Counted from the stretch's first letter, positions 1-11,399 are shown. The stretch is DNA of 11,399 nucleotides from a virus (IMGVR_UViG_2645727593_000020); one strand, 5' to 3'. Program-made: numbers and translations. The notes: generated by a model not told the origin, from the letters alone.

Positions 1-17
1 AACATGAGCAAACAGAC

Positions 18-46
18 AAAAAAAGGGCCAGCCAATTGGCCAGCCC
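18..46 (-). terminator. Putative rho-independent terminator for the minus-strand integrase-fragment/membrane-protein transcript
   Basis: Seen in sequence: GGGCCAGCC-AATT-GGCCAGCCC (25..46) forms an imperfect GC-rich hairpin around the palindromic core GCCAATTGGC. On the minus strand it is followed directly by a 7-nt T run (A run 18..24 on plus). It lies about 150 nt downstream of the stop of the 204..1133 ORF. Confidence 0.4.
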
Positions 47-203
47 TTCTTAACAGGATGTCGCTTAAGCGAAATCTTAGTTAAGACGCTTTTACATGAT
101 ACCATTGATAAACATGCATTTTTCATTATAAACAGTTAGTTATATGTATCACTAGTGTAGTCAAGTGCAGCCATAAACATGCTGTGTGGGCAGATTGTGG
201 ACA

Positions 204-1133
204 CTACTTATTTCCCTGTCCAATCTTACCCGCAACTGCCTCGGTAAGCTTTACTAAGGTTTCAAGTTCATTTTTGTCTAATTTTCTTGCTTCAATAATT
301 TCAGTAGTCTGCCCTGATTCTAGTTTTCCAACTCTTGAGCTAAAATTAATTTTATCCAGAAGGTCTATCATATCGATATCTTTCTGGCTAGCCATTACAA
401 GCTTTATAATGGCATAGCTTTCCTCACGTGAACGTTTTATTGCCTCGTAATAGCGAAACTCATCCATCGTAACCCGATATTGCTTCAAAAAGAAAAATGC
501 GATTAACTCCAAGAAAATCAACACGCCAAAATTAGGGAGAAGATACATTACCTTGGTTACCGCATCATCCTTAGCATCAATTACATGTGATTGAGAATAG
601 AAGAAACCTAATCCAACTATTGCAAAACAAACACCGACTAATAAATAAAGACTACCGCGAGAATATATGTTTTTCGCAAGACCTTCAGAGCTATTAATCA
701 AACCTTTAAGATAAAAATCCAGAGATTCATCTTCATCAGCAGCAGCCCTTTCCTCTTGAGCCTTCTTGAGTAGTTTTATCTCATTTATAATATCGACAAT
801 ATTAAACATCGATGATTTGTCGACTGAATCACTCCCTGTAATTCTCATAAACATTCTTTGGATTGGAGACACACCATAGATAATGGTGTAAACGATTACA
901 AATGACACTGCGAATATTGACCTGATAAAGCTCGGCAAATGTGTAAGATCTGCTCTCGCACTGGGAAATAAATAATAAAAGGTTGAGTCTAATATCCCTG
1001 TAGCAAAAATTACATTTGCAACTAGAAAGACTGCACCTATCTCAACTAAATTATAAAAACCACGAGTGCGTACCCTAATGACTTTGGCCTCGGTCATTCT
1101 TGGAGGTGTTTCGATGGTTGGCTCACTCATCAT
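204..1133 (-). CDS. Hypothetical integral membrane protein, 309 aa, four predicted transmembrane helices with an internal two-fold architecture; function unknown
   Basis: Long ORF in visibly AT-rich DNA. AGGA lies 7 nt upstream of the ATG at 1133. Hydrophobic helices at about aa 26-48, 69-88, 161-179 and 195-216; charged, helix-prone segments at aa 100-160 (KLLKKAQEERAAADEDE) and 217-309. The start overlaps the stop of the upstream integrase fragment by 11 nt. No catalytic motif recognised. Confidence 0.65.
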   Translation of the reverse strand: MMSEPTIETPPRMTEAKVIRVRTRGFYNLVEIGAVFLVANVIFATGILDSTFYYLFPSARADLTHLPSFIRSIFAVSFVIVYTIIYGVSPIQRMFMRITGSDSVDKSSMFNIVDIINEIKLLKKAQEERAAADEDESLDFYLKGLINSSEGLAKNIYSRGSLYLLVGVCFAIVGLGFFYSQSHVIDAKDDAVTKVMYLLPNFGVLIFLELIAFFFLKQYRVTMDEFRYYEAIKRSREESYAIIKLVMASQKDIDMIDLLDKINFSSRVGKLESGQTTEIIEARKLDKNELETLVKLTEAVAGKIGQGNK

Positions 1134-1464
1134 ATAATCCTGTTAAATTAGAAATAGGGTTAAGAGTTACAGCTTCTTCTAAATGATCTGGTGCAAAATG
1201 AGCGTATCTCATGGTTTCCCTAATGTTAGAATGGCCCAAGATTCGTTGCAGTACTAAAATGTTCCCACCATTCATCATAAAGTGACTCGCAAATGTATGA
1301 CGTAACACATTCGTTTTTTGCCCTTCAGCTAACTCTATATCGGTCAGAGCGAGCATTTTCTTGAACTCCTGATAGCAGGGGTGGAACATTTTTCCCTGTA
1401 AAGGAGCCAACTCGTCATATAGCCACCGAGGGATCGGTACTGTACGATTCTTCTTTCCCTTGGT
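1123..1464 (-). pseudogene. Tyrosine recombinase (phage integrase family) C-terminal fragment, 5'-truncated
   Basis: Translation ...[24 protein letters not shown]...NVLRHTFASHF...ILGHSNIRETMRYAHF... carries the C-terminal catalytic-domain landmarks of tyrosine recombinases (GKGxKxRxVPL-like patch, LRH box, GHS, RY with the presumptive nucleophilic Tyr). The N-terminal part with the box I arginine is absent. There is no ATG; the ORF track starts it at a TTG (1410). The upstream limit of homology (about 1464) is judged by eye and is approximate. Confidence 0.6.
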
Positions 1465-1473
1465 TTGGGAGAA
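1448..1473. repeat. Left recombination site of the invertible segment (gix/hix-like 12-2-12 site), hybrid in composition
   Basis: TTCTTCTTTCCC-TT-GGTTTGGGAGAA. The right half plus core is an exact inverted copy of the half-site at 3334..3347 (TTCTCCCAAACC-AA) and resembles hix/gix half-sites as recalled (TTnTCnnAAACC). The outer left half (TTCTTCTTTCCC) lacks the AAACC element. Confidence 0.55.
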
Positions 1474-1812
1474 GCGGCTAAAAGGAATGTAGGGACAGGG
1501 GCGAATCAGATACCTGATATGGGTAGCTTCACGCTTTCTGTTTCAGGTACTGGATATCAAAAATTTCCATCAGGTTTTATTCTTCAGTGGGGCTCAATCG
1601 GCGCACCAGGCATTGCACAGGATGTAGTAACCCATTTCCCGATTGCATTTCCAAACAGATGTCTGCGTGTTTTGGTCTCACAAGACTACACACCAGATAG
1701 CGGGGCTGTTGGTTATATTGCCTGTGCAGGTTTTAGTCCCGACCCGGTTAAATTTATATCCAGAGCCAGTACTCCTGGCCTCGGCGCTTCATTTTTAGCG
1801 TTAGGCTGTTAA
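1462..1812 (+). CDS. Tail-fibre C-terminal variable segment (Sv-like), no own start codon; orphaned from any constant N-terminal part in this window
   Basis: The frame is open from 1423 (a stop precedes it at 1420..1422) with no ATG before an internal Met. The translation GLGE...[15 protein letters not shown]... resembles phage fibre C-terminal domains. The frame begins exactly in the recombination-site core encoding GLGE, which the minus-strand Sv' also encodes at the right site. Confidence 0.5.
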
Positions 1813-1833
1813 TTTAGCTATATGGAGTGAAAA

Positions 1834-2274
1834 ATGAATTACATATATTCCGCGACTACAAACTCTTTCTATCCGCTGGAGATGAAAGAGGATTACACTC
1901 AAGCTGACTCATGGCCAGATGATGCTGTTGAAGTTGATGAGCAAGTGTATATTGAGTTTTCCGGATTACCGCCGAAAGGAAAAATCCGTATCGCTGGAGA
2001 AAATAGTTTTCCTGCATGGACTGAAATTCCACCACCAACACATGAGGAACAGATTGCTGCAGCCGAACTTGAAAAGCAGCAACTGATTAATCAGGCCAAC
2101 GATTATATGAACAGTAAACAATGGCCTGGTAAAGCGGCTATTGGTCGTCTGAAAGGTGAGGAACTGGCGCAATATAATTTGTGGCTGGATTATCTGGACG
2201 CACTGGAACTGGTCGATACTTCCGGTGCGCCAGATATTGAATGGCCTACGCCTCCGGCAGTTCAGGCCAGATGA
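1834..2274 (+). CDS. Tail-fibre assembly chaperone (Tfa family), 146 aa
   Basis: GGAG lies 7 nt upstream of the ATG. The C-terminus ...LVDTSGAPDIEWPTPP... matches the conserved Tfa C-terminal motif (xDTSxAPDIxWP) of lambda Tfa / Mu U / E. coli TfaE-type proteins. It lies directly downstream of the fibre variable segment. Confidence 0.8.
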   Translation: MNYIYSATTNSFYPLEMKEDYTQADSWPDDAVEVDEQVYIEFSGLPPKGKIRIAGENSFPAWTEIPPPTHEEQIAAAELEKQQLINQANDYMNSKQWPGKAAIGRLKGEELAQYNLWLDYLDALELVDTSGAPDIEWPTPPAVQAR

Positions 2275-2848
2275 CATCCGGCGCGGTGCTGGTATCTGTT
2301 GCCGTCACCGCGTCAATGTAATCCAGCGCAGCGTTAAGTCGGGCGGTTTCTGCCTGCGTCAGATTCCGTCCGGCCTGCAATTTCAGCTGAATCAGACTAA
2401 TGGAAGCCATTGCATTATCAATCAGTGACTGACGCTGTGCTTCTGCCGCGCCTACTGCGGCGCTATGCTGTGCCACAGTATCTGTTACCCATTTCTCACC
2501 ATCCCATTCATCGTATGGCGTTAACGGGGCGATAGTGGTTGTATTTTCAGGATAATCACCCGGAGCTGTGATTTCTTTCGATTCTCCTGTTTCTGTGCTA
2601 TAGATGATTTCACCGCGATGGTCTGGCACATATTCCCATGAGTTAAAATCTGCAGAACGGCAGATTGCATAACCAGCTTTATGTGTAACTGGCGCATCTA
2701 AACAAGAACATGCCGGGATACCGACGCCAACCGCAAGATATTCAGTTGACGTGGAAATATATTCCCGTGTTTCACCATCGTAGTTATAAACGGTAACATC
2801 CCCTGCCTTTGTTGCAATAAGCTCACTATTTAATATTGCTTTATGCAT
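2246..2848 (-). CDS. Tail-fibre assembly chaperone, alternative copy (Tfa'), 200 aa
   Basis: The C-terminus ...TATDTSTAPDVIWPELPEA carries the same Tfa motif. The start ATG overlaps the TGA stop of the upstream Sv' (TGATG on the minus strand at 2846..2850). The 3' end overlaps the plus-strand tfa convergently by 29 nt. Confidence 0.8.
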   Translation of the reverse strand: MHKAILNSELIATKAGDVTVYNYDGETREYISTSTEYLAVGVGIPACSCLDAPVTHKAGYAICRSADFNSWEYVPDHRGEIIYSTETGESKEITAPGDYPENTTTIAPLTPYDEWDGEKWVTDTVAQHSAAVGAAEAQRQSLIDNAMASISLIQLKLQAGRNLTQAETARLNAALDYIDAVTATDTSTAPDVIWPELPEA

Positions 2849-3345
2849 CAGGCTGACCTCACGATATAGTTAAATGCAATATTACGCGGACGCGTTTCTG
2901 AGGCTGCGGCACCTAAACCAGCCACTGATTGTTTATATGTTTTAAAGGTTCCATAATCCGGTGCTGGTAATCCGGCATCGTTTGTGTTTCCTCTTTTGAT
3001 AATGTCAGTGCCACTATTTACCCAGCTTTCATCAAAATAGAAATTAATCGTTGCATCAGTCACAATCGTGGATCTTGACGGTAATCCATGAGCATGATCC
3101 TCCGTTGCATACCCCTGAATACTTAAAATAGAGCGACCTGTATCAATCCCCCGTCCGTCATCCCAGCCACGAATAAACTCACCACGTAAATCAGGCAATT
3201 TATTTGCCGGATAAGCCTTTGCCAGTTCCGGGTATTCTTCAGCAGAAAAAGCTGCACCATTGCATTTCAGCCAGCCTGTTGGCGGTGTGGCTGAAGGCCA
3301 CGGAACAGGGACGCCAACAGGTAATGCAGAGCCTTCTCCCAAACC
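2848..3345 (-). CDS. Tail-fibre C-terminal variable segment, alternative copy (Sv')
   Basis: The translation ...VGLGEGSALPVGVPVPWPS...YPELAKAYPANKLPDLRGEFIRGWDDGRGID... is typical of Mu S / P1 S-type fibre C-terminal domains. The ORF-track N-terminus (3346..3444) runs through the recombination site into the invertase start region and is not counted as fibre. The real coding part begins at the crossover (GLGE at 3334..3345). Confidence 0.6.
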   Translation of the reverse strand, partial: GLGEGSALPVGVPVPWPSATPPTGWLKCNGAAFSAEEYPELAKAYPANKLPDLRGEFIRGWDDGRGIDTGRSILSIQGYATEDHAHGLPSRSTIVTDATINFYFDESWVNSGTDIIKRGNTNDAGLPAPDYGTFKTYKQSVAGLGAAASETRPRNIAFNYIVRSA

Positions 3346-3359
3346 AACGTTTAAGAAAA
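3334..3359. repeat. Right recombination site of the invertible segment (gix/hix-like)
   Basis: TTCTCCCAAACC-AA-CGTTTAAGAAAA: two imperfectly inverted 12-bp half-sites around a 2-bp core. It shares 14 bp (TTGGTTTGGGAGAA on the opposite strand) in inverted orientation with 1460..1473. It sits about 55 bp upstream of the invertase start. Confidence 0.6.
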
Positions 3360-3413
3360 TGTAGTTTTCCCCCCTAGCTGGCATCATTTGGGCTTTTGCA
3401 TGAGGGAAAACAA

Positions 3414-3992
3414 ATGCAGGTTGGCTATGTGCGCGTATCAACAAATGAACAAAATACCGCGCTACAGCGTGACGCGCTGGAACGGTCGGGATGTGAGCTA
3501 ATTTTCGAGGATAAAATCAGCGGTAAATCGACAAACAGGCCAAGGTTAAATCGCGCACTCAGGCAACTTAATGCCGGTGATACTCTCGTTGTCTGGAAGC
3601 TCGACAGGCTCGGGCGTAGCATGCGCCATCTTGTCTCTATGACTGAAGAGCTTCGCCAGCGAGGGGTTAATTTCAGAAGCCTGACCGACAGTATTGATAC
3701 CTCAACCCCGATGGGGCGATTTTTCTTTCACATCATGGGCGCTCTTGCAGAAATGGAACGCGAGTTAATCGTCGAACGAACCCGCGCCGGGCTGGATGCA
3801 GCCCGGGCACAAGGCAGGATCGGAGGTCGTAGGCCGAAGCTGACGCCTGATGAATGGGCTCAGGCTGGCCGGTTGATTGCGGCCGGAGAATCCCGACAGC
3901 GTGTTGCACTGATTTTTGATGTGGGCATATCGACGCTGTATAAAAAATTTCCGGCGACAAATCCCGTTGTGTCAGCCACCGGCGAACCCTGA
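3414..3992 (+). CDS. Serine-recombinase DNA invertase (Hin/Gin/Cin/Pin family), 192 aa
   Basis: From ATG 3414 (GAGGG 6-7 nt upstream): MQVGYVRVSTNEQNTALQRDAL...GDTLVVWKLDRLGRSMRHL...RSLTDSIDT...MGRFFFHIMGALAEMERELIVERTRAGL...GRIGGRRPKLT...STLYKK. It has the active-site Ser near position 10, the resolvase catalytic core and a C-terminal helix-turn-helix, colinear with Gin/Hin. The ORF-track start at 3396 is 6 codons longer and less likely. Confidence 0.9.
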   Translation: MQVGYVRVSTNEQNTALQRDALERSGCELIFEDKISGKSTNRPRLNRALRQLNAGDTLVVWKLDRLGRSMRHLVSMTEELRQRGVNFRSLTDSIDTSTPMGRFFFHIMGALAEMERELIVERTRAGLDAARAQGRIGGRRPKLTPDEWAQAGRLIAAGESRQRVALIFDVGISTLYKKFPATNPVVSATGEP

Positions 3993-3994
3993 CA
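3970..3994 (+). promoter_or_regulatory. Perfect 6-bp dyad TGTCAG-N13-CTGACA straddling the invertase stop; candidate activator site for an FI late promoter
   Basis: Seen in sequence. The dyad centre (about 3982) lies roughly 50 bp upstream of a possible -10-like CAATAT (4022..4027) ahead of FI. The spacing does not match the TGT-N12-ACA Ogr-site consensus as recalled, so this is tentative. Confidence 0.2.
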
Positions 3995-4056
3995 AATAGC
4001 CGCATACAGGCGTAAACCAGACAATATCACTCACCTCAACTAACGGAGTTAAACGG

Positions 4057-5244
4057 ATGAGTGATTATCATCACGGTGTCGAGGTCGTCGAAATTAACGA
4101 CGGCACCCGCACAATCTCGACGGTATCAACGGCGGTCGTTGGCATGGTCTGCACAGCCAGTGATGCTGACGCCGGGGCTTTCCCTCTCAATGAGCCGGTG
4201 CTGATTACCAACCCACAAAGCGCCATCGCAAAAGCCGGTACTAAAGGTACCCTGGCAAAATCCTTACAGCTCATCGCTAACCAGTCAAAACCGGTTGTCG
4301 TTGTTGTGCGTGTCGCGGAGGGTACCGGCGACGGCGAAGAGGCACAGGCGCAAACCATTTCTAACATCATCGGCACCACGAATGAGAATGGCAAATATAC
4401 CGGGATGAAAGCGCTGTTAACGGCGAAAGCGGTCACCGGCGTGAAGCCACGTATTCTCGGTGTGCCGGGGCTCGATACTCAGGAGGTGGCGACCGCGCTT
4501 GTCTCCGTGGCTCAGAAGCTGCGCGCTTTCGCCTATGTCAGCGCGTGGGGCTGTAAAACCATTGCTGACGTTATCGCCTACCGCGAAAACTTCAGCGCCC
4601 GTGAGCTCATGATTATCTGGCCTGACTTCCTCGGGTGGGATACCACGGCCAACGCGACCACAACCAGTTATGCAACAGCGATCGCGTTGGGACTGCGCGC
4701 AAAAATCGACAATGATACAGGCTGGCATAAAACCCTGTCAAACGTCGGCATCAATGGCGTCACCGGTATCAGTGCGTCGGTCTTCTGGGATTTGCAGGAA
4801 TCTGGCACTGATGCCGACCTGCTGAATGAGGCCGGTGTTACGACGCTGATTCGTGCCGATGGTTTCCGCTTCTGGGGTAACCGTAATTGCTCCGATGACC
4901 CGCTGTTTCAGTTTGAGAACTACACCCGCACCGCACAGGTCATAGCCGACACAATAGCCGAGGGGCATATGTGGGCGAACGATAAGCCCATCACCGCGAC
5001 GTTGATTCGCGACATTATCGACGGCATCAACGCGAAATTCCGCGAGCTGAAAACCGGCGGTTACATCATCGATGCGACGTGCTGGTTTGACGAAGAGGCC
5101 AACAGTAAAGAAACCCTGAAAGCCGGGAAACTGTTTATCGATTATGACTATACGCCGGTGCCGCCACTCGAACACCTGACCTTACGCCAGCGCATTACTG
5201 ATAAATATCTGGCGAATCTTATCTCGTCCGTCAACAGCAAATAA
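4057..5244 (+). CDS. FI: Contractile tail sheath protein (P2 gpFI homolog), 395 aa
   Basis: The N-terminus MSDYHHGVEVVEINDGTRTISTVSTAVVGMVCTASDAD... and the rest are colinear with P2 gpFI as recalled (about 396 aa). GGAG lies 8 nt upstream of the ATG. Confidence 0.95.
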   Translation: MSDYHHGVEVVEINDGTRTISTVSTAVVGMVCTASDADAGAFPLNEPVLITNPQSAIAKAGTKGTLAKSLQLIANQSKPVVVVVRVAEGTGDGEEAQAQTISNIIGTTNENGKYTGMKALLTAKAVTGVKPRILGVPGLDTQEVATALVSVAQKLRAFAYVSAWGCKTIADVIAYRENFSARELMIIWPDFLGWDTTANATTTSYATAIALGLRAKIDNDTGWHKTLSNVGINGVTGISASVFWDLQESGTDADLLNEAGVTTLIRADGFRFWGNRNCSDDPLFQFENYTRTAQVIADTIAEGHMWANDKPITATLIRDIIDGINAKFRELKTGGYIIDATCWFDEEANSKETLKAGKLFIDYDYTPVPPLEHLTLRQRITDKYLANLISSVNSK

Positions 5245-5256
5245 GGAGCCTGACAA

Positions 5257-5775
5257 ATGGCATTACCGCGCAAGCTCAAACTCATGAACCTGTTTATCGA
5301 TGGGGTGAGTTATCTCGGCGTCGTGCAGTCCGTCACGCTGCCGAAATTAACCCGCAAGCTCGAGAACTATCGCGGCGGCGGGATGAATGGTTCGGCACCG
5401 GTCGACCTCGGCCTCGATGACGATGCGCTGTCGGCTGAAATCTCTCTCGGCGGCTTCCCCGATGACGCTATCTGGTCGTTATACGCTGCCACCGGCGCGG
5501 CCTCCGTACCGCTACGTTTTGCCGGGTCTTACCAGCGTGATGACACCGGCGAGACCGTGCCGGTTGAGGTTGTTCTCCGTGGCCGTCAGAAAGAAATCGA
5601 CCTCGGTGAAGCCAAACAGGGCGAAGACACCGAGTCGAAAATCGCTCTCGCGTGTACCTATTTCAAGCTGACGATGAATGGCTCGGAACTGGTGGAAATC
5701 GACACCGTGAACCTCATCGAAAAAGTGAACGGCACCGACATGCTCGAGGCGCACCGACAAAATATCGGCCTGTAA
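5257..5775 (+). CDS. FII: Tail tube protein (P2 gpFII homolog), 172 aa
   Basis: MALPRKLKLMNLFIDGVSYLGVVQSVTLPKLTRKLENYRGGGMNG... matches the P2 tube protein in sequence and length. AGGAG lies upstream; it sits directly downstream of FI. Confidence 0.95.
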   Translation: MALPRKLKLMNLFIDGVSYLGVVQSVTLPKLTRKLENYRGGGMNGSAPVDLGLDDDALSAEISLGGFPDDAIWSLYAATGAASVPLRFAGSYQRDDTGETVPVEVVLRGRQKEIDLGEAKQGEDTESKIALACTYFKLTMNGSELVEIDTVNLIEKVNGTDMLEAHRQNIGL

Positions 5776-5778
5776 TTT

Positions 5779-5808
5779 ATGCCCCGGTCAGCATGGCTGG
5801 CCGGGCAT
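5779..5808 (+). other. GC-rich stem-loop in the FII-E intergenic region (possible partial terminator or RNA-stability element)
   Basis: ATGCCCCGGTCAGC-ATG-GCTGGCCGGGCAT forms a stem of about 13 bp with one bulge and one mismatch. No U tract follows on the plus strand, so it is not a classic intrinsic terminator. Confidence 0.35.
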
Positions 5809-5837
5809 CCTGAAACCAGAATTTAACGAGAAATATC

Positions 5838-6110
5838 ATGGATAAAACTAACGAAAATATCGTCACTCTGATTAAACCCATTAAGCGCGGTGAGCAGGTT
5901 ATTACCGACGTCACCCTGTTAAAACCGTGTGCCGGAACCCTTCGCGGTGTCAGCCTGGCATCAGTCGCAAACTCTGACGTCGATGCGCTGATTAAAGTGC
6001 TGCCGCGCATGACCATGCCGTCGCTGACCGAGCAGGAAGCCGCCGCACTGGAGCTGCCCGACCTGCTGTCGTTTGCCGGTAAGGTGGTCGGTTTTTTGTC
6101 ACCGAGTTAG
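5838..6110 (+). CDS. E: Tail assembly chaperone (P2 gpE homolog), 90 aa
   Basis: Conserved position between the tube and tape-measure genes, small size, and a C-terminus ending on a slippery run (…VVGFLSPS*). Confidence 0.85.
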   Translation: MDKTNENIVTLIKPIKRGEQVITDVTLLKPCAGTLRGVSLASVANSDVDALIKVLPRMTMPSLTEQEAAALELPDLLSFAGKVVGFLSPS

Positions 6111-6271
6111 GCGGCGTAATCTTCCCGCAAAAACTCACGGTCGATGACCTGATGGCTGACATAGCGGTAATTTTCCACTGGTCGCCATCAGACCTGTATC
6201 CCATGAGCCTGACCGAACTCGTCAACTGGCGCGAAAAAGCGCTACAGCGAAGCGGAAACACGAATGAGTAA
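5838..6271 (+). CDS. E+E': Tail assembly chaperone frameshift product (P2 gpE+E' homolog), about 144 aa, made by a programmed -1 frameshift
   Basis: After a -1 slip at T_TTT_TTG (6092..6098) the frame stays open to the TAA at 6269..6271, adding VTELGGVIFPQKLTVDDLMADIAVIFHWSPSDLYPMSLTELVNWREKALQRSGNTNE. The end overlaps the T start (ATG 6264). This is the conserved myovirus/siphovirus chaperone arrangement (lambda G/GT, P2 E/E+E'). Confidence 0.75.
6092..6098 (+). promoter_or_regulatory. -1 programmed ribosomal frameshift slippery heptamer T_TTT_TTG
   Basis: X_XXY_YYZ heptamer in the E zero frame, 4 codons before the E stop. The -1 frame downstream is open for 57 codons. Confidence 0.7.
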
Positions 6272-8693
6272 TAACCTCAAACTCGAAGTGCTGCTGAAAG
6301 CTGTCGACCAGGCGACCCGACCCTTTAAAGCGATCCAGACGGCGAGCAAATCGCTGTCTGGCGATATCCGCACGACTCAGCAATCCCTGCGTGATTTGAA
6401 TGGTCAGGCATCGAAAATCGACGGTTTTCGCAAAACCAGCGCACAACTGGCGGTAACCGGACAGGCACTGGAAAAGGCAAAACAGGAAGCCGCCGAGCTG
6501 GCGGTGCAGTTTAAAAACACGGAACGGCCAACGGCGGCACAGGCCAGAGTGCTGGAATCAGCAAAGCGTTCGGCTGAAGGGTTACAGGCAAAATATAACA
6601 GCCTCACCCAATCGGTGAAGCGGCAACAGACCGAGCTCGGCAAAGCGGGGATTAATACGCGCAATCTGTCGAATGATGAAAGCCGCCTGAAAAACTCTAT
6701 CAATGAAACTACCGCACAACTTAACCGCCAGCGTGAAGCACTGGCGCGGGTCAGCGCGCAACAGGCAAAACTCAGCGCAGTACAAAAACGCTATCAGGCA
6801 GGAAAGGCACTGGCTGGAAATGCGGCATCGATGGGCGCTGCCGGGATAGGCATGGCAACGACCGGAGCGCTTGCCGGTGTTGCACTGATGAAGCCCGGTT
6901 ATGATTTTGCTCAGAAAAACTCTGAGTTACAGGCCGTTCTCGGTGTCGGTAAAGACTCAGCTGATATGGTGGCGCTCCGCAAACAGGCGCGCCAGCTCGG
7001 TGACAACACCGCCGCGTCGGCTGATGATGCTGCCGGTGCTCAGATTATTATTGCAAAGGCTGGCGGCGATGCTGCGGCTATTCAGGCCGCTACCCCCGTA
7101 ACACTCGATATGGCGCTCGCAAACCGTCGAACGATGGAAGAGAACGCCGGGTTATTGATGGGGATGCGCTCTGCCTTCCAGCTTTCAAACGATAAGGTCG
7201 CCCATATCGGTGATGTTCTGTCGATGACGATGAACAAAACCGCCGCCGACTTTGACGGCCTGAGTGATGCGCTGACTTATGCCGCGCCGGTGGCGAAAAA
7301 TGCCGGGGTCAGCATCGAAGAAACAGCCGCAATGGTCGGCGCACTGCATGACGCCAAAATTACGGGATCGATGGCGGGTACGGGGAGCCGTGCCGTATTA
7401 AGTCGCCTGCAGGCTCCAACGGGCAAAGCGTATGACGCCATTAAAGAGCTCGGCGTCAAAACGGCTGATGGTAAGGGGAACACACGTCCAATATTTACCA
7501 TCCTGAAAGAAATGCAGCGGAGTTTTGATAAAAACAACCTCGGCACCGGCCAGCGTGCCGAATATATGAAAACCATTTTCGGTGAAGAGGCCAGCTCGTC
7601 GGCTGCGGTACTCATGACCGCTGCCTCGAGCGGGAAATTAGACCAGCTTACCGCTTCCCTTAAAGCATCGGATGGCAAAACCGCTGAGCTGGTGAAGGTC
7701 ATGCAGGATAACCTCGGCGGCGATTTTAAAGAGTTTCAGTCTGCGTATGAAGCGGTAGGAACCGACCTGTTTGACCAGCAAGAGTCATCATTAAGAAAGC
7801 TGGTACAAACGACGACAGGGTATGTATTGAGGCTCGATAGCTGGATCCAAAAGAACAAATCTCTTGCCACCACGCTGGGTGTCATTACGGCGGCAGCTGT
7901 CGGTATTGTGGGGATGATTGGTGCCATTGGCCTTGTATCGTGGCCGGTAATTACTGGCATTAACGCCATCATTTCGGCGGCTGGTGCGCTTGGTGCGGTC
8001 TTTACGACAATCAGTGGCGGGGTCATTGCGGCTATTGGTGCTATTACGTGGCCTGTCGTGGCGGTAGCGGCGGCTGTTGTCGCTGGCGCGCTGCTTATCC
8101 GTAAATACTGGGAGCCTGTCAGCGCATTCTTTGCCGGTGTGGTCGAGGGGCTCATGAGTGCCTTTGCGCCGGTCGGGGAAATGTTCGCCCCGCTGGCACC
8201 CATTTTCGACGGTCTCGGCGAAAAACTTCGCGGCGTCTGGCAGTGGTTTAAAGACCTGATAGCGCCGGTGAAAGCGACTCAGGACACGCTCAACAGTTGT
8301 CGTGATGTTGGGGTTATGTTCGGTCAGACGCTGGCCGATGCACTGCTGATGCCGCTTAACGCCTTTAACAAGCTGCGAAGCGGGATTGACTGGGTGCTCG
8401 AAAAACTCGGCATTATCAACAAAGAATCCAGCTCACTTGACCAGACTGCGGCGAAAGCCAATGCAGCGACGCAGAACGGTTACAGCCCGGCAATCAGCGC
8501 ATACAACAGCTATCAGCCGGTCACGGCACCCGCCGGTAAAACCTACATCGACCAGAGTCGGCCAATCTATCAAATCACCGTGCCGGGCAATGGTATGCCG
8601 GGAGATCGGTTGGGTAATGATTTGCAGGATGCATTAGAAAAGTATGAGCGCGAGAAGCGCGCCAAAGCCCGCGCAAGCATGATGCATGACTAA
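6264..8693 (+). CDS. T: Tail tape measure protein (P2 gpT homolog), 809 aa
   Basis: Size and position match P2 gpT. The N-terminal half is helical and coiled-coil-like, followed by a Gly/Ala-rich hydrophobic stretch (about aa 530-610). The start overlaps the E+E' stop. Confidence 0.9.
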   Translation: MSNNLKLEVLLKAVDQATRPFKAIQTASKSLSGDIRTTQQSLRDLNGQASKIDGFRKTSAQLAVTGQALEKAKQEAAELAVQFKNTERPTAAQARVLESAKRSAEGLQAKYNSLTQSVKRQQTELGKAGINTRNLSNDESRLKNSINETTAQLNRQREALARVSAQQAKLSAVQKRYQAGKALAGNAASMGAAGIGMATTGALAGVALMKPGYDFAQKNSELQAVLGVGKDSADMVALRKQARQLGDNTAASADDAAGAQIIIAKAGGDAAAIQAATPVTLDMALANRRTMEENAGLLMGMRSAFQLSNDKVAHIGDVLSMTMNKTAADFDGLSDALTYAAPVAKNAGVSIEETAAMVGALHDAKITGSMAGTGSRAVLSRLQAPTGKAYDAIKELGVKTADGKGNTRPIFTILKEMQRSFDKNNLGTGQRAEYMKTIFGEEASSSAAVLMTAASSGKLDQLTASLKASDGKTAELVKVMQDNLGGDFKEFQSAYEAVGTDLFDQQESSLRKLVQTTTGYVLRLDSWIQKNKSLATTLGVITAAAVGIVGMIGAIGLVSWPVITGINAIISAAGALGAVFTTISGGVIAAIGAITWPVVAVAAAVVAGALLIRKYWEPVSAFFAGVVEGLMSAFAPVGEMFAPLAPIFDGLGEKLRGVWQWFKDLIAPVKATQDTLNSCRDVGVMFGQTLADALLMPLNAFNKLRSGIDWVLEKLGIINKESSSLDQTAAKANAATQNGYSPAISAYNSYQPVTAPAGKTYIDQSRPIYQITVPGNGMPGDRLGNDLQDALEKYEREKRAKARASMMHD

Positions 8694-8704
8694 GGAGACT
8701 GATT

Positions 8705-9169
8705 ATGATGCTGGCATTAGGTATGTTTGTTTTTATGCGTCAGACGCTGCCCTACCAGAGCATGCAGCGCAGCGCGGATTATAGCTGGGCGTCAAACTCT
8801 CGCATCGGGAAGCGTGACGCTTTTCAGTATCTCGGCGAGGGGGAAGATAAAATCACCCTGAGCGGTGACCTGTATCCTGAGCTGACCGGCGGTAAGCTCA
8901 CGATGCTGGCGCTTTATGCAATGGCTGAACAGGGGCGCGCATGGCCGCTTATCTCTGGCTCAGGCTGGATTTACGGGATGTTTGTTGTCAGTAATGTCTC
9001 GGAGACCGGCACGGTATTTTTTGAGGATGGGACGCCACGAAAAATCAGCTTCACCCTGTCACTGACCCGTGTCGATGAGTCGCTCGCCGCGGTGTATGGC
9101 GATATTGGAAAACAGGCCGAAAGTCTGGTCGGGAAAGCTGGCGATCTGCTGTCGATGGTGGGGGCGTAA
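8705..9169 (+). CDS. U: Tail protein gpU homolog, 154 aa
   Basis: AGGAG lies upstream of the ATG. The translation MMLALGMFVFMRQTLPYQSMQRS...LYPELTGG... resembles the P2 gpU family; position between T and D. Confidence 0.9.
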   Translation: MMLALGMFVFMRQTLPYQSMQRSADYSWASNSRIGKRDAFQYLGEGEDKITLSGDLYPELTGGKLTMLALYAMAEQGRAWPLISGSGWIYGMFVVSNVSETGTVFFEDGTPRKISFTLSLTRVDESLAAVYGDIGKQAESLVGKAGDLLSMVGA

Positions 9170-9171
9170 TC

Positions 9172-10344
9172 ATGCTGGATATTATCACCGGCGCGGGTGC
9201 CACGCTGACGCCCGACTTTATGCTGACACTGGAAAGCAAAGATATCACCGGCAATATCAGTGACCGGCTGATTAACCTCTCGATGACGGACAATCGGGGT
9301 TTTGAGGCCGACCAGCTCTACATCGAGCTCGACGATACTGACGGTCTGGTCGCATTGCCGATTCGCGGTGCGGTGCTGTCGCTGTATCTCGGGTGGAAAG
9401 GTTTCTCTCTGGTCAGCAAGGGGCGATTTACCGTCGATGAGGTAGAGCACCGGGGGGCGCCGGATACGGTAACCATTCGCGCCCGGGGTGCGGATTTTCG
9501 CGGGACGCTTAATTCCCGTCGTGAGGAGTCATGGCATGACACCACGCTCGGCGCAATCGTCAGCTCGATAGCTGAGCGGAACAAGTTAACGGCCAGCGTC
9601 ACTGATTCTCTTGCGGGGATCCAGATTCCGCATATCGACCAGTCTCAGGAATCCGACGCCGTTTTCCTGACTCGCCTCGCAGAACGCAACGGCGGTGCGG
9701 TCTCAGTGAAAGCGGGTAGATTGCTGATGCTCAAAGCGGGAAGCGGTACCACTGCCAGTGGAAAAGCTATTCCTCAAATTACCATCCAGCGCGGTGACGG
9801 TGACCGGCATCAGTTTGCCATTGCCGACCGTGGCGCTTACACCGGCGTAACCGCTAAGTGGCTGCACACTAAAGACCCGAAACCGGCGAAACAAAAGCAG
9901 ACAGTGAAGCTGAAACGTAAGCCCAAAGAGCAACACCTCCGGGCGCTACAGCACCCGAAAGCAAAACCAGTGAGCAGTAAAGTCACGGCCAAAAAGCAAA
10001 AAGAGCAGGAAGCCCGCGAGGGTGAATACATGGCCGGTGAGGCTGACAACGTTTTCGCGCTGACGACCATTTACGCGACAAAGGCGCAAGCGATGCGTGC
10101 AGCTCAGGCGAAGTGGGATAAATTGCAGCGTGGGGTTGCGGAGTTCTCCATTATGTTAGCGACCGGCCGCGAGGATATTTACCCCGAAACGCCGGTCAGG
10201 GTCTCAGGCTTTAAGAGCGTTATAGACGAGCAAGCATGGATAATCAGCAGGGTGACCCATAATCTCGGTGGGAATGGCTTCACAACGGCTGTAGAGCTTG
10301 AGGTGATGCTTTCGGATGTAGAATATGACACCGACGAATCTTGA
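9172..10344 (+). CDS. D: Tail protein gpD homolog (late control D family), 390 aa
   Basis: The start overlaps the U stop (TAATCATG). Size and sequence are consistent with P2 gpD; it is followed by ogr as in P2. Confidence 0.9.
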   Translation: MLDIITGAGATLTPDFMLTLESKDITGNISDRLINLSMTDNRGFEADQLYIELDDTDGLVALPIRGAVLSLYLGWKGFSLVSKGRFTVDEVEHRGAPDTVTIRARGADFRGTLNSRREESWHDTTLGAIVSSIAERNKLTASVTDSLAGIQIPHIDQSQESDAVFLTRLAERNGGAVSVKAGRLLMLKAGSGTTASGKAIPQITIQRGDGDRHQFAIADRGAYTGVTAKWLHTKDPKPAKQKQTVKLKRKPKEQHLRALQHPKAKPVSSKVTAKKQKEQEAREGEYMAGEADNVFALTTIYATKAQAMRAAQAKWDKLQRGVAEFSIMLATGREDIYPETPVRVSGFKSVIDEQAWIISRVTHNLGGNGFTTAVELEVMLSDVEYDTDES

Positions 10345-10359
10345 TTATACAAACAAAAC

Positions 10360-10387
10360 TTGCAAATGTAAGATTCAAGTTTATTAT
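10360..10387 (+). promoter_or_regulatory. Putative sigma70 promoter for ogr (-35 TTGCAA 10360..10365, -10 TATTAT 10382..10387, 16-bp spacer)
   Basis: Hexamers read directly from the sequence in the D-ogr intergenic region, about 35 bp upstream of the ogr start. P2 ogr is known to have its own promoter. Confidence 0.4.
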
Positions 10388-10420
10388 CCCCCTCAAGTCA
10401 GCAAGGAGAGGGAAGAAATT

Positions 10421-10639
10421 ATGATGCACTGCCCGCTATGTCAGGATGCAGCACACGCACGATCAAGCCGGTACCTGAGCACTGAAACGAAAGAGCGCTA
10501 CCACCAGTGCCAGAACATCAACTGCGGTTGCACTTTCGTCACCCACGAGAGCCTTGCTCGTTTTATCGTGAAGCCAGGAGAAATTGAACCCGCCCCACCC
10601 CACCCGTCTAAATACCAACAACATCAGCTCTGGCTTTAA
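10421..10639 (+). CDS. ogr: Zinc-finger late-gene transcriptional activator Ogr, 72-73 aa
   Basis: MMHCPLCQDAAHARSSRYLSTETKERYHQCQNINCGCTFVTHE...IVKPGE... has the CxxC...CxxxxC zinc-binding pattern of P2 Ogr / P4 Delta. The start is at ATG 10421 or 10424, preceded by AAGGAGAGGGAAG. The 104-aa ORF-track version (from 10325) overlaps the D 3' end and is rejected as the real start. Confidence 0.85.
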   Translation: MMHCPLCQDAAHARSSRYLSTETKERYHQCQNINCGCTFVTHESLARFIVKPGEIEPAPPHPSKYQQHQLWL

Positions 10640-10676: not shown

Positions 10677-11399
10677 TTAGATTGGTAATGAAAAAGCTAT
10701 CGCCTTGCAGATATGTTGCTTTGTTAACGCAGGATGTGTTGAAGCAAAAAGCGATAAAAAGCTTTTAGCTTCAACCGAATCATCATTAAGCGAAATATTA
10801 TCTTTGATGAATGGATGAAGTGCGATTCCAGCGCTCATAGATAACGGCACATAGTTGATGAATATATCTTCTTTTGTGAGACCTAGCTGGTTTGCTTGTG
10901 CTTCAAATGAATTAGCATCTAAATAATCACGTATACGTTCTTTGGCCTCTGGTCGGAGTCTCGATTCTTGACGCGGCAGAGAAAGCATCTTATCAATATC
11001 TCCCCATGAGATAGGAACCTCAAAATAGCCACCACCTTCTTCCTCTGGAGGTGCCGGGAAATTCACATAAAAATAGTTTTTTTGCTGTGTAGGGTCGTTC
11101 ATGGACTGACGATGATAGTTATAAATACTTCTAATACGGTTGGCCTTGTTATGATGCCGAGCATTTCGAATAACAAGCATCATTAATAATTCAGGTTTCA
11201 AATACCAGTCAGGCTCTAATCCATTGCTTTGCATGTTGTCATACAAATTATGAAAAGCATTAAGTTGTGTATTCAGGCCCGATTCTAAATTGCCAATTGC
11301 TTCAGCACGATCAATAGCCAACAAACGCTGTAGTGACCAGTTAGACTCTAATAAAACCCGAAAGGCCTGTGCAAGATCTTCAAAAGAGTGGGAAAGCAT
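10677..11399 (-). CDS. Hypothetical protein, at least 240 aa, AT-rich accessory gene; 5' end may extend beyond the window
   Basis: Long minus-strand ORF running to the window edge in visibly AT-rich DNA, convergent to ogr. Contains an R-x4-H patch (VIRNARHH, aa 78-83) of the type seen in HEPN-like nuclease folds, and an acidic/Gly patch PPEEEGGG. No confident family assignment. Confidence 0.5.
   Translation of the reverse strand: MLSHSFEDLAQAFRVLLESNWSLQRLLAIDRAEAIGNLESGLNTQLNAFHNLYDNMQSNGLEPDWYLKPELLMMLVIRNARHHNKANRIRSIYNYHRQSMNDPTQQKNYFYVNFPAPPEEEGGGYFEVPISWGDIDKMLSLPRQESRLRPEAKERIRDYLDANSFEAQANQLGLTKEDIFINYVPLSMSAGIALHPFIKDNISLNDDSVEAKSFLSLFASTHPALTKQHICKAIAFSLPI

Follow-up and report, generated by a model that had tools for sequence, protein, structure and literature searches.

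A still-inverting tail-fibre cassette at the junction of a 21-kb deletion in a P2-like prophage remnant of Escherichia coli O127:H6 E2348/69

The tail-fibre cassette described here belongs to a 186/P2-like prophage remnant and lies at the scar of a 21,073-bp loss. We consider it probable that this loss was brought about by a Gin-family DNA invertase acting at a quasi-site and that it left behind a hybrid crossover site at which the cassette still inverts. Inversion of the cassette has already been published and the locus is not new; it represents an ordinary, already-known kind of system, with an origin that is modestly interesting. All positions refer to the window, that is, the whole stretch of 11,399 nucleotides that was analysed, and its features are collected in Table 1.

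Table 1. Features of the window, in order of position.
Feature	Position	Strand	Description
Hypothetical gene	204..1133	-	309 aa; left (attL) prophage end, downstream of int, not part of the switch
Tyrosine integrase 3' remnant	1123..1461	-	C-terminal ~112 codons; N-terminal two thirds deleted
Hybrid left site	1448..1473		TTCTTCTTTCCC (int-derived outer half) - TT core 1460-1461 - GGTTTGGGAGAA (authentic inner half)
Invertible segment	1460..3347		1,888 bp including both 15-bp repeat arms; 100 % identity, inverted, to NC_011601.1
Variable fibre C-terminal fragment 1	1462..1812	+	Gp53-like_C, Pfam PF21882
Tail-fibre assembly gene 1	1834..2274	+	146 aa; Pfam Caudo_TAP, E=2.6e-37; same length as PCN033 homologue
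Tail-fibre assembly gene 2	2246..2848	-	200 aa, tfaE-like; Caudo_TAP, E=2.8e-31; annotated tfaE in relatives
Variable fibre C-terminal fragment 2	2848..3345	-	Collar domain, PF07484; phrog_3100 positions 212-382 of 382
Right site	3334..3359		TTCTCCCAAACC - AA core 3346-3347 - CGTTTAAGAAAA; full consensus-like 26-bp site
Gin/Pin-family serine DNA invertase	3414..3992	+	192 aa, uninterrupted, carries G44R
Putative recombinational (Fis) enhancer	3436..3498		Two candidate 15-bp Fis sites within the 5' end of the invertase gene
Retained P2-type tail operon and late activator	4057..10639	+	FI, FII, E/E', T, U, D, ogr; all frames open

Inversion of the segment

The window is DNA of E. coli O127:H6 E2348/69, in whose lineage the prophage is inserted between yfiB and rplS, and it matches NC_011601.1 at 100 % identity, the sole difference being the inverted orientation of 1460-3347. 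This interval coincides with a published phase-variable one, NC_011601.1 2977580-2979467, listed in Table S1 of Goldberg et al. 2014 (PMC4272514; Genome Med 6:112) as inverting in 4 colonies with 93±4 % in the forward orientation, and the orientation of the window is the minority form (~7 % per colony in those data). That work combined sequencing with PCR and states PCR validation for every phase variation reported; the repeat is given in its table as TTGGTTTGGGAGAAG, with one G missing in print. The locus is presented there as a simple two-variant fibre switch which, according to the legend of Figure S4, joins a different C-terminus to a downstream protein, and the accessible part of the article does not mention that the constant part is missing, that one half-site stems from int, or that a deletion took place.

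Both orientations of the segment are also present among other, independent public assemblies. The segment is inverted relative to all four complete E2348/69 genomes, which share one orientation (4/4), and many draft contigs stop within or close to the cassette, as might be expected if the difference were an assembly artefact or a single ancient, fixed inversion and not ongoing switching. This is extremely unlikely, given that both forms coexist in single colonies, as published with PCR confirmation, that the 15-bp repeat is far shorter than a read, and that orientation is homoplastic on SNP haplotypes. The haplotype 2594T/5906T is found in one orientation in the assembly loci L001 and L004 and in the other in L010 and L013, and 2594G/5906C likewise in L021, L023, L024 and L027 versus L011, L012, L014 and L022, with an identical deletion junction in all loci of both haplotypes. 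Because each haplotype occurs in both orientations and always with the same junction, at least two flips postdate the deletion; the segment has thus inverted repeatedly since it took place. The inversion expected of a Gin/Hin/Cin/Pin switch is therefore seen in the comparison with the reference, among assemblies and in the published within-colony mixture, which bears out the suggestion of an earlier note, made from the sequence, that the segment could still flip and that both orientations should be sought.

The crossover sites

The perfect inverted repeat at the ends of the segment spans only 15 bp (1460-1474 and 3333-3347). By our estimate ~0.06 perfect 15-nt inverted repeats are expected by chance in 11.4 kb, which makes this one mildly improbable on its own; it is taken as real because it coincides with a match to the consensus, with the gene content and with documented inversion. 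The two sites are inverted and have the 26-bp format of Gin/Hin/Cin/Pin switches, their cores TT and AA being the same dinucleotide inverted. Scored against a degenerate consensus, the right site reaches 23/24; it is identical to the right site of the related prophage in strain PCN033 and one position away from the right sites of e14 and of the Mu-like prophage. The left site reaches 19/24 (8+11), and its outer half, 1448-1459, is coding sequence of the truncated tyrosine integrase. Half-sites scoring 8/12 also occur in the natural, working sites of the other P2-like switch of this enteropathogenic E. coli (EPEC) genome. The description "inverted 26-bp sites" consequently has to be amended: 15 bp are complementary, and the left site is a hybrid between an integrase-gene quasi-site and a real half-site, so that 1448..1473 is a deletion junction as well as an inversion endpoint.

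Genes of the segment and the missing fibre part

Between the repeat arms lie two divergent pairs, in each of which a tail-fibre assembly gene accompanies a C-terminal piece of a fibre gene, with the fibre fragments at 1465-1812 (+ strand) and 2848-3342 (- strand), each 3 nt longer as delimited in Table 1. For fragment 1 the match is to the C-terminal ends of fibre families (phrog_2557, for instance, over positions 415-532 of 534), and its counterpart in PCN033 is the final ~116 aa of H, a protein of 319 aa. Both fragments open with codons for G-L-G-E (LGLGEAAK at the left end, NVGLGEGSAL at the right), as the earlier reading of a shared GLGE-coding crossover had it. Upstream of the left site there is no constant N-terminal fibre part, its place being taken by the antisense int remnant; the + strand frame there is open only from 1423, with no start codon before a TTG at 1465. 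In PCN033 the constant part comprises ~203 codons, located within the DNA that is deleted here, and the in-frame constant part of a phage host-range switch is therefore lacking. The called starts of the small "phage tail protein" genes vary with orientation, giving 164/179 aa and 115/130 aa.

Neither orientation would yield a fibre or a virion, because the constant fibre part, the baseplate and the head are absent, and flipping is without a predicted phenotype because nothing is left for the variable fragments to fuse to. The switch has no evident output, and the designation "two-state host-range switch" is not supported. What remains of the proposed complete Gin/Pin-type cassette (1448-3992) is the invertible segment with its uninterrupted invertase, the constant part being missing, as the earlier note itself conceded.

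The prophage remnant

To the right of the cassette, the retained operon is 99.67 % identical to PCN033, without gaps, and shows ~76 % nucleotide identity to P2 from 3982 on. This homology begins at window 3982 = P2 17575, a point within the annotated pF activator site, which follows directly on fun(Z), and the P2-type FI gene starts at 4057, downstream of the invertase, which agrees with the placement of the cassette at the Z/fun interval of a P2-like tail cluster. The idea of an unusual accessory insertion at Z/fun fares less well: the order H, invertible segment, invertase, FI is standard in invertase-bearing peduoviruses such as phage pro483 and in many E. coli prophages.

To the left, the hypothetical protein is WP_001294850.1, whose gene adjoins an intact int in PCN033; searches gave no Pfam family and no convincing PADLOC match for it, and only phrog_5157, of unknown function. 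The int remnant is annotated in RefSeq as "incomplete; missing N-terminus", its match to the Pfam family Phage_integrase is limited to profile positions 111-170 of 172, and up to window 1466 it matches the 3' part of the PCN033 integrase gene, which is intact (345 aa), at 99.6 % identity. Of the full P2 gene complement (Q-P-O-N-M-L, lysis, R-S-V-W-J-I-H-G, FI-D, ogr, int, C/CI, A), nothing survives in the window but FI, FII, E/E', T, U, D, ogr and the 3' end of int; the P2 genes lost from the E2348/69 remnant are present in the PCN033 relative. The prophage is thus a remnant and not a phage.

The deletion and its junction

Compared with the intact prophage that occupies the same chromosomal site in PCN033 (a full prophage of 32.4 kb), 21,073 bp are missing. 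Lost with them are the repressor and the genes for replication, lysis, head and baseplate, together with two thirds of int (its 5' portion) and the stretch of H that encodes the constant part. Window 1-1466 corresponds to 1837-3301 of the PCN033 locus (L002), and window 1458-2897 to 24366-25804 of the same locus. The int N-terminus and the CI region are absent from all four E2348/69 genomes, and the event was therefore a deletion and not a translocation.

In a three-way alignment of the window, the PCN033 int quasi-site and the left site (gixL), the crossover falls within CC-TT, i.e., at the 2-bp core. The intact relative has the left site TTCTCAAAAACC-TT-GGTTTAGGAGAA and the int quasi-site TTCTTCTTTCCC-TT-CGTTTTAGTGAA, and the endpoints of the deletion are the TT cores of these two sites, which are in direct orientation. 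The 32.4-kb prophage contains 4,677 26-mers whose core is TT or AA; apart from the authentic sites, the int quasi-site alone has the top score of 19, the next best scoring 17. A site as good as this appeared in only ~10 % of shuffled-sequence trials, and it is conserved in 7/7 intact relatives checked. The inner half-site of the remnant, GGTTTGGGAGAA, is one base off the GGTTTAGGAGAA of PCN033, and the true ancestor was therefore not PCN033 itself.

The junction has the form expected of recombination at an invertase quasi-site, with the crossover at the central dinucleotide common to an authentic and a degenerate site, and it points to catalysis by an invertase because the deletion joins the core TT of the left site to that of the best quasi-site in direct orientation. 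The parental sequences also share the perfect microhomology CCTT at the junction, and prophage decay by random deletion is common, so that illegitimate (microhomology-mediated or slippage) recombination could have made the deletion and met the crossover sites by chance. This is very improbable, in that the right endpoint lies in a 4-bp window containing the 2-bp core of the left site and the left endpoint coincides with the core of the one highest-scoring quasi-site in the 32.4-kb prophage, which likewise has TT and is oriented for excision, each coincidence having a probability of ~1e-4 for random endpoints by our estimate (4 bp in 32 kb).

Wild-type Gin, Hin and Cin strongly favour inverted sites, and deletion between direct repeats is very inefficient in vitro. 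Gin-family invertases are regarded as strictly inversion-specific. The topological filter of these enzymes has been described (PMC3798978). Because invertases favour inversion so strongly, a deletion would be an unusual product, one that can be argued for only from its scar.

The same end structure would also result from two steps, namely an inversion between the int quasi-site and the right site, followed by a deletion between the sites that had thereby become direct. The first step would be the preferred reaction, as the quasi-site (TT) and the right site (AA on the + strand) are mutually inverted, and both inner half-sites of the remnant are GGTTTGGGAGAA, which is the inner half of the PCN033 right site. 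We nevertheless regard this path as unlikely: it still requires one direct-repeat deletion and is less parsimonious, the G/A difference may be mere strain polymorphism, and no intermediate was seen among the loci compared.

In the preferred, single-step reading, a Gin-family invertase would have carried out strand exchange between the left crossover site and the quasi-site in int; as these have the same TT core in direct orientation, the intervening DNA would have been excised as a circle, leaving the hybrid site TTCTTCTTTCCC-TT-GGTTTGGGAGAA. This site, the intact right site and the putative Fis enhancer would still support inversion of the 1.9-kb segment, at a rare or skewed level corresponding to the ~7 % minority form. 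The enzyme responsible for flipping would be either the resident G44R invertase or, acting in trans, the other intact invertase encoded in the genome.

The invertase and its enhancer

The invertase has the organisation of small serine recombinases, with an N-terminal catalytic domain carrying the Ser9/10 nucleophile and a C-terminal helix-turn-helix (Pfam Resolvase, PF00239, and HTH_7, PF02796). Its best match of solved structure is Mu Gin (3uj3, E=1.5e-85), gapless over residues 1-183; 134 positions are identical to Mu Gin in a global alignment of 193 columns, and 146/192 aligned positions are identical to PinE. The residues Y5, R7, S9, D33, R42, D64, R65 and R68 are all present. None of the assemblies examined that carry the deletion interrupts the frame, and there is no SNP among them from window 2595 to 4973. 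The sole difference from the PCN033 enzyme is G44R. Position 44 is G in 119/120 close homologues and R in none, and it is G also in Gin, PinE, pro483 and the PCN033 enzyme. It lies two residues from an essential Arg, at the start (N-cap) of helix B; in Hin, the Arg beside this position is essential and helix B is needed for Fis/enhancer activation. Because the substitution affects a near-invariant glycine, the activity of the resident enzyme is uncertain and may be impaired. The claim that the invertase looks functional is accordingly upheld for its frame and catalytic residues and weakened by this lineage-specific change.

The candidate Fis sites lie at nt +23..+37 and +71..+85 of the gene, with centres 48 bp apart, and the first is ~97 bp from the core of the right site, the native hix-to-enhancer spacing of Hin being 99 bp. 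The 15-mer at +71..+85 fits GNNYRNNWNNYRNNC in 5/5 genes compared (window, Mu gin, e14 pinE, the 199-aa EPEC invertase and the truncated Mu-like copy), while candidate Fis site I is assigned on the basis of its spacing and by comparison with the hin and gin enhancers. The enhancer within the 5' end of the gene is putative.

In E2348/69, three invertible loci and two intact invertase genes were identified, the second being that of a 199-aa enzyme in a P2-like prophage at 1.894 Mb. In the Mu-like prophage of this strain no more than 31 invertase codons survive, yet flipping at 60:40 is reported for it (Goldberg et al. 2014, PMC4272514), which indicates that trans catalysis occurs in this genome and makes the earlier suggestion of action in trans on other sites plausible. 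The minority fraction at the window locus is lower than at the other loci of that study, 93:7 versus 60:40 and 51:49 (PMC4272514). These observations, together with the position and conservation of G44, would fit a resident enzyme that is inactive or crippled, with the 199-aa invertase flipping the segment in trans and the local gene a passenger. The Gin, Cin, Pin and Hin systems are, moreover, cross-reactive in general. We rate such a passenger role as possible, if somewhat doubtful: the reading frame has been kept, every catalytic residue is present, and the weak hybrid site explains the low minority fraction equally well.

Implications

For annotation, the label prophage remnant suits the locus better than host-range switch, with its invertible segment noted as orphaned but still active and its small "phage tail protein" genes as C-terminal fragments. 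The junction would offer a clean natural example of how DNA invertases can delete via quasi-sites and disable a prophage, and it illustrates how a site with only one good half can keep recombining. It is relevant to the question of how widely invertases rearrange genomes that hold several Gin-type systems; no new class of system is opened.

A bolder version holds that in nature a Gin-family invertase excised 21 kb of its own prophage (left site x int quasi-site) and so grounded it, that G44R, at the helix B N-cap (the Fis-enhancer clamp), may be a natural relaxed-directionality variant that enabled the deletion, and that the remnant may persist as invertase provider for the genome's other, invertase-less switch. 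Taken as a whole it is improbable. If it were true, one invertase step would have removed the integrase function, the repressor and the replication, lysis and head genes.

Comparison with known systems

The Mu G segment with Gin, the P1 C segment with Cin and the e14 P segment with Pin resemble the window in the small serine invertase, the 26-bp sites with a 2-bp core, the two divergent pairs of fibre C-terminus and assembly gene, the documented inversion, and an invertase gene that lies immediately beyond the right site and carries a conserved Fis-like sequence at +71..+85. Unlike them, the window has no constant fibre part or virion, its left site is a hybrid with an integrase outer half, and its enzyme carries G44R; the minority form amounts to ~50 % in e14 versus ~7 % per colony here.

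Invertase-bearing Peduoviridae (pro483, the PCN033 prophage) share the order H - tfa / tfa' - Sv' - invertase - FI, and the PCN033 prophage also shares the chromosomal insertion site, with flanks 99.6-99.7 % identical to the window. Unlike this intact prophage, the window has, besides the cassette and the invertase, no more than ogr, two end genes and the tail operon from sheath to D. Another P2/186-like phage with an invertase, Fin, is reportedly Salmonella Fels-2 (Kutsukake, in 2006). That paper is among those cited by Goldberg et al. 2014 (PMC4272514).

The closest parallel to the deletion itself is quasi-site recombination by Cin. The events of 1986 and 1987 attributed to Iida and Hiestand-Nauer were reportedly obtained on laboratory plasmids and detected by selection. 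Cin uses quasi-sites that share the central dinucleotide (Iida and Hiestand-Nauer 1986, 1987, as cited in PMC4134206). Both cases involve an authentic site and a poor one, a common central dinucleotide and a crossover at the core. Unlike the plasmid events, the window holds a natural chromosomal scar fixed in a pathogen lineage, where a 21-kb deletion disabled the prophage and the hybrid site stayed active.

Location and layout of the cassette

The window is chromosomal DNA of enteropathogenic Escherichia coli (EPEC) O127:H6 E2348/69, or of a very close relative, and matches the reference chromosome NC_011601.1 at ~2,976,121-2,987,519 with 100 % identity except for three mismatches and one inversion, the region being flanked by yfiB on one side and rplS on the other. 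The gene order is a 309-aa hypothetical gene, the 3' remnant of a tyrosine integrase gene (int), the cassette, the serine invertase gene, P2-type FI, FII, E/E', T, U, D and ogr, and a 240-aa hypothetical gene. Homology to P2 begins at 3982, the pF activator site directly after fun(Z) in P2, and the cassette with its invertase fills the G-to-FI interval, as the earlier note had proposed in placing it at the Z/fun position. The two end genes, one beside int and the other after ogr, are identical or near-identical in intact relatives and are possibly cargo genes; Pfam and PADLOC gave them no assignment and PHROGs no function, phrog_5157 (function unknown) being the only family match of the 309-aa gene.

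Features of the cassette and its surroundings, with the crossover sequences from a three-way alignment
Feature	Window position	Strand	Sequence or remark
309-aa end gene	204-1133	-	beside int
Perfect inverted repeat, left arm	1460-1474		15 bp
Gp53-like fibre C-terminal fragment	1465-1812	+	between repeat arms
Tail-fibre assembly gene, first	1834-2274	+	between repeat arms
Tail-fibre assembly gene, second	2246-2848	-	between repeat arms
Collar-domain fibre fragment	2848-3342	-	between repeat arms
Perfect inverted repeat, right arm	3333-3347		15 bp
Serine invertase gene	3414-3992		192 aa
240-aa end gene	10677-11399	-	after ogr
int sequence		+	TTCTTCTTTCCC-TT-CGTTTTAGTGAA
Left site of intact phage		+	TTCTCAAAAACC-TT-GGTTTAGGAGAA
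Window left site	1448-1473	+	TTCTTCTTTCCC-TT-GGTTTGGGAGAA

Both fibre fragments align solely to the C-terminal ends of fibre families and share an initial G-L-G-E coding stretch overlapping the repeat, in agreement with the shared start proposed earlier for the alternative segments. The crossover sites are real, but the inverted sites described as 26 bp long share a perfect repeat of just 15 bp, the left outer half being int sequence. No promoter turned up before the invertase or either fibre fragment in a crude sigma-70 scan, whose matches were rarer than in shuffled sequences and which is uninformative. In the distal part of the Collar-domain fragment, megablast finds no PCN033 prophage alignment for 2897-3140, both flanks being 96-99.7 % identical, a case of local mosaicism at the receptor-binding tip.

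Upstream of the left site lies int in antisense, the + frame being open only from 1423 with no start codon ahead of the TTG at 1465, and the baseplate genes and the constant part of the fibre are gone. With these parts missing, the two-state host-range switch of the earlier note does not hold, and the predicted gene content is that of a switch without output, with nothing left to switch. An open frame that enters the segment from the intergenic region on its right changes with orientation (179 or 198 aa in the window orientation) and is probably the subject of the Figure S4 legend of Goldberg et al. 2014 (PMC4272514); it is a putative reading frame, not taken as a functional protein.

The left crossover site as a deletion scar

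An intact 32-kb 186/P2-like prophage occupies the same chromosomal site in E. coli PCN033 and in twelve other complete genomes, and carries CI, CII, Fil, head, lysis and baseplate genes, H, the cassette, the invertase and tail genes. Window 1-1466 corresponds to 1837-3301 of the PCN033 locus (L002), which covers the 309-aa gene and the 3' part of int, and window 1458-2897 to 24366-25804 of that locus, from the left crossover site onward; 21,073 bp of the intact prophage are absent. The int N-terminus and CI region were found nowhere in four E2348/69 genomes, and this genome-wide absence therefore marks a true deletion. In the alignment, the crossover lies within CC-TT, at the 2-bp core that serine invertases cleave, and the left site is a scar that the earlier note had overlooked.

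All 26-mers were scored against the degenerate half-site consensus TTYYCNWAAACS, built from sites of this genome, e14 and Mu, which agrees with the Sandmeier consensus as quoted in PMC4134206. Only six reach at least 19/24 in the 37-kb PCN033 locus, namely the authentic sites (24 and 23), the TT-core int site (19) and three others whose cores are unrelated. Of the 4,677 prophage 26-mers whose core is TT or AA, the int site scores highest after the two authentic sites (next best 17), and a comparable site arises in ~10 % of shuffled-prophage trials. It has the same TT core as the left site on the same strand, which is the excision arrangement, and is kept in 7/7 intact relatives examined.

The chance that both endpoints fall on site cores is estimated at the order of 1e-8. 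In the laboratory work of Iida and Hiestand-Nauer (cited in PMC4134206), Cin reportedly uses quasi-sites with a matching central dinucleotide, a feature shared by the int and left sites here, in what is a natural prophage rather than a laboratory setting. The coincidence of the endpoints, taken with the Cin precedent, leads us to judge from the scar that an invertase probably made the deletion: the enzyme would have paired the left site with the int quasi-site, crossing over at the TT core, and the DNA between these directly oriented sites would have been excised, leaving the hybrid site. The product would be identical if the int quasi-site had first recombined with the right site by inversion and a deletion had come second, a two-step route considered unlikely. 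Deletion, as in the direct pairing of int and left sites that we favour, is strongly disfavoured by wild-type invertases (PMC3798978), because the Fis/enhancer invertasome picks inverted sites. A hyperactivating mutation behind the event was considered and set aside, as the resident enzyme has no known one and is wild type at the Fis-independent positions H106 and M114. Literature searches found no relevant published account of an invertase-made prophage deletion.

Inversion in colonies and assemblies

The segment 1460-3347 is reversed in the window relative to 4/4 complete E2348/69 genomes, with breakpoints exactly at the 15-bp repeats. The same coordinates (NC_011601.1 2977580-2979467) appear as a phase-variable EPEC inversion in Table S1 of Goldberg et al. 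2014 (PMC4272514), with 93±4 % forward in four colonies and PCR validation stated for every reported event, and the window orientation is the minority form. The sequencing and PCR search for both orientations advised in the earlier note was thus already in print (PMC4272514), and its view that the segment could still flip is confirmed by this within-colony mixture and by both orientations among public assemblies.

Exact-protein look-ups led to further assemblies holding the remnant, in the window orientation at loci L010-L014, L020 and L022 and in partial contigs, and in the reference orientation at L004, L021, L023, L024 and L027. Each of two main SNP haplotypes is found in both orientations and the deletion junction is identical in all these loci, either way round, and therefore at least two inversions postdate the deletion. 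The hybrid left site is still active; half-sites scoring 8/12 also occur at the natural sites of EPEC's other P2-like switch, for which flipping is reported (Goldberg et al. 2014, PMC4272514). The minority fraction is 7 % here versus 40-50 % at the Mu-like and e14 loci, which fits a weaker left site. Assuming symmetrical rates and ~30 generations, our own calculation with the formula from the Goldberg et al. 2014 (PMC4272514) material gives roughly 2-3 x 10^-3 flips per generation.

A 29-mer spanning the deletion junction had no exact match in genome-contig or metagenome-contig collections. In L011 (GCA_900450255.1, UGGC01000001.1) the left-site core TT lacks a base at the equivalent of 1461, through an indel error or through a mutation that would lock the switch. 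Draft contigs L013-L019, L027 and L028 end at 1405, 1420 and 1960-2384, and many break within the tfa/tfa' overlap or 40-55 nt outside the left repeat, consistent with assembly-graph forks caused by mixed orientations or by multi-copy tfa genes.

The resident invertase and other invertases of the genome

Over residues 1-183 the invertase has a gapless alignment to Mu Gin (3uj3, E=1.5e-85). It carries the Resolvase and HTH_7 domains with every catalytic residue, and its gene is uninterrupted. A single residue, G44R (codon 44 at 3543-3545), separates it from the PCN033 enzyme. This position is glycine in 119/120 nearest cluster representatives, arginine in 0/120, and glycine in the Gin, PinE, pro483 and PCN033 enzymes; R44 is common to all deletion-bearing loci, and G44R appears to be a lineage-specific substitution. 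Residue 44 falls in the R-P-G-L motif, whose Arg is essential in Hin and which leads into helix B, where basic residues are needed for Fis/enhancer activation (PMC3798978). The intact, functional-looking invertase of the earlier note stands as to gene and catalytic residues and is qualified by G44R at a near-invariant glycine, a change that neither establishes nor excludes the disabling mutation named there as contrary evidence.

In the Mu-like prophage of E2348/69, the invertase is cut to its first 31 codons (L029 3881-4053, NC_011601.1 2751380-2751552) and the stub, which contains both candidate Fis sites, adjoins a truncated eutC. For the fibre segment of that prophage, Goldberg et al. 2014 (PMC4272514) report 60:40 flipping; an invertase encoded elsewhere must therefore act in trans, and trans catalysis certainly occurs in this genome. 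At least two intact invertase genes were identified in an inventory of part of the genome, the resident gene and another at 1.894 Mb (NC_011601.1 1893763-1894362) that encodes a 199-aa enzyme.

In the other P2-like prophage (L035 26390-31975, NC_011601.1 1894389-1899974), the FI-FII-E-T-U block is antisense to H, the cassette and the invertase, and U ends 26 bp past the invertase gene; a second invertase-made rearrangement was rejected, the block ends having no gix-like sites. A further draft contig, L025 5984-12495 (GCA_001265355.1, JHRF01000033.1), has the yfiB flank, int remnant and hybrid site of the window and diverges from ~2023. Beyond that point it encodes a different fibre fragment and a 199-aa invertase, its right site has the outer half CGTTTTCGTTTT, and U and T lie on the other strand, resembling the 1.89-Mb EPEC prophage. 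Its SNP cluster at 2034-2148 is graded, with the breakpoint inside tfa and no core crossover, against site-specific exchange between two cassettes, and suggests homologous recombination within tfa or a chimeric contig.

Comparison with known systems

The cassette is a real, correctly placed and ordinary Gin-family fibre switch within a prophage remnant, with no output, and its phase variation was already published at these coordinates (PMC4272514). The present analysis adds nucleotide-level evidence for a remnant arising by site-specific deletion via the int quasi-site, evidence of continued activity at the resulting hybrid site, and the G44R change in the resident enzyme. The order H - tfa / tfa' - Sv' - invertase - sheath is shared by the phage isolate pro483 (a peduovirus), the prophage of PCN033 and many further E. 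coli prophages, and the layout seen in the window is not unusual.

A Fis-consensus 15-mer at gene +71..+85 is kept in the resident gene, Mu gin, e14 pinE, the gene of the 199-aa enzyme and the truncated copy, and a second candidate site lies 48 bp upstream, ~97 bp from the right-site core. These assignments follow in part the hin and gin sites, and are consistent with a putative functional enhancer at 3436-3498. The ~97-bp distance is close to the native spacing of Hin, which is 99 bp (PMC3798978).
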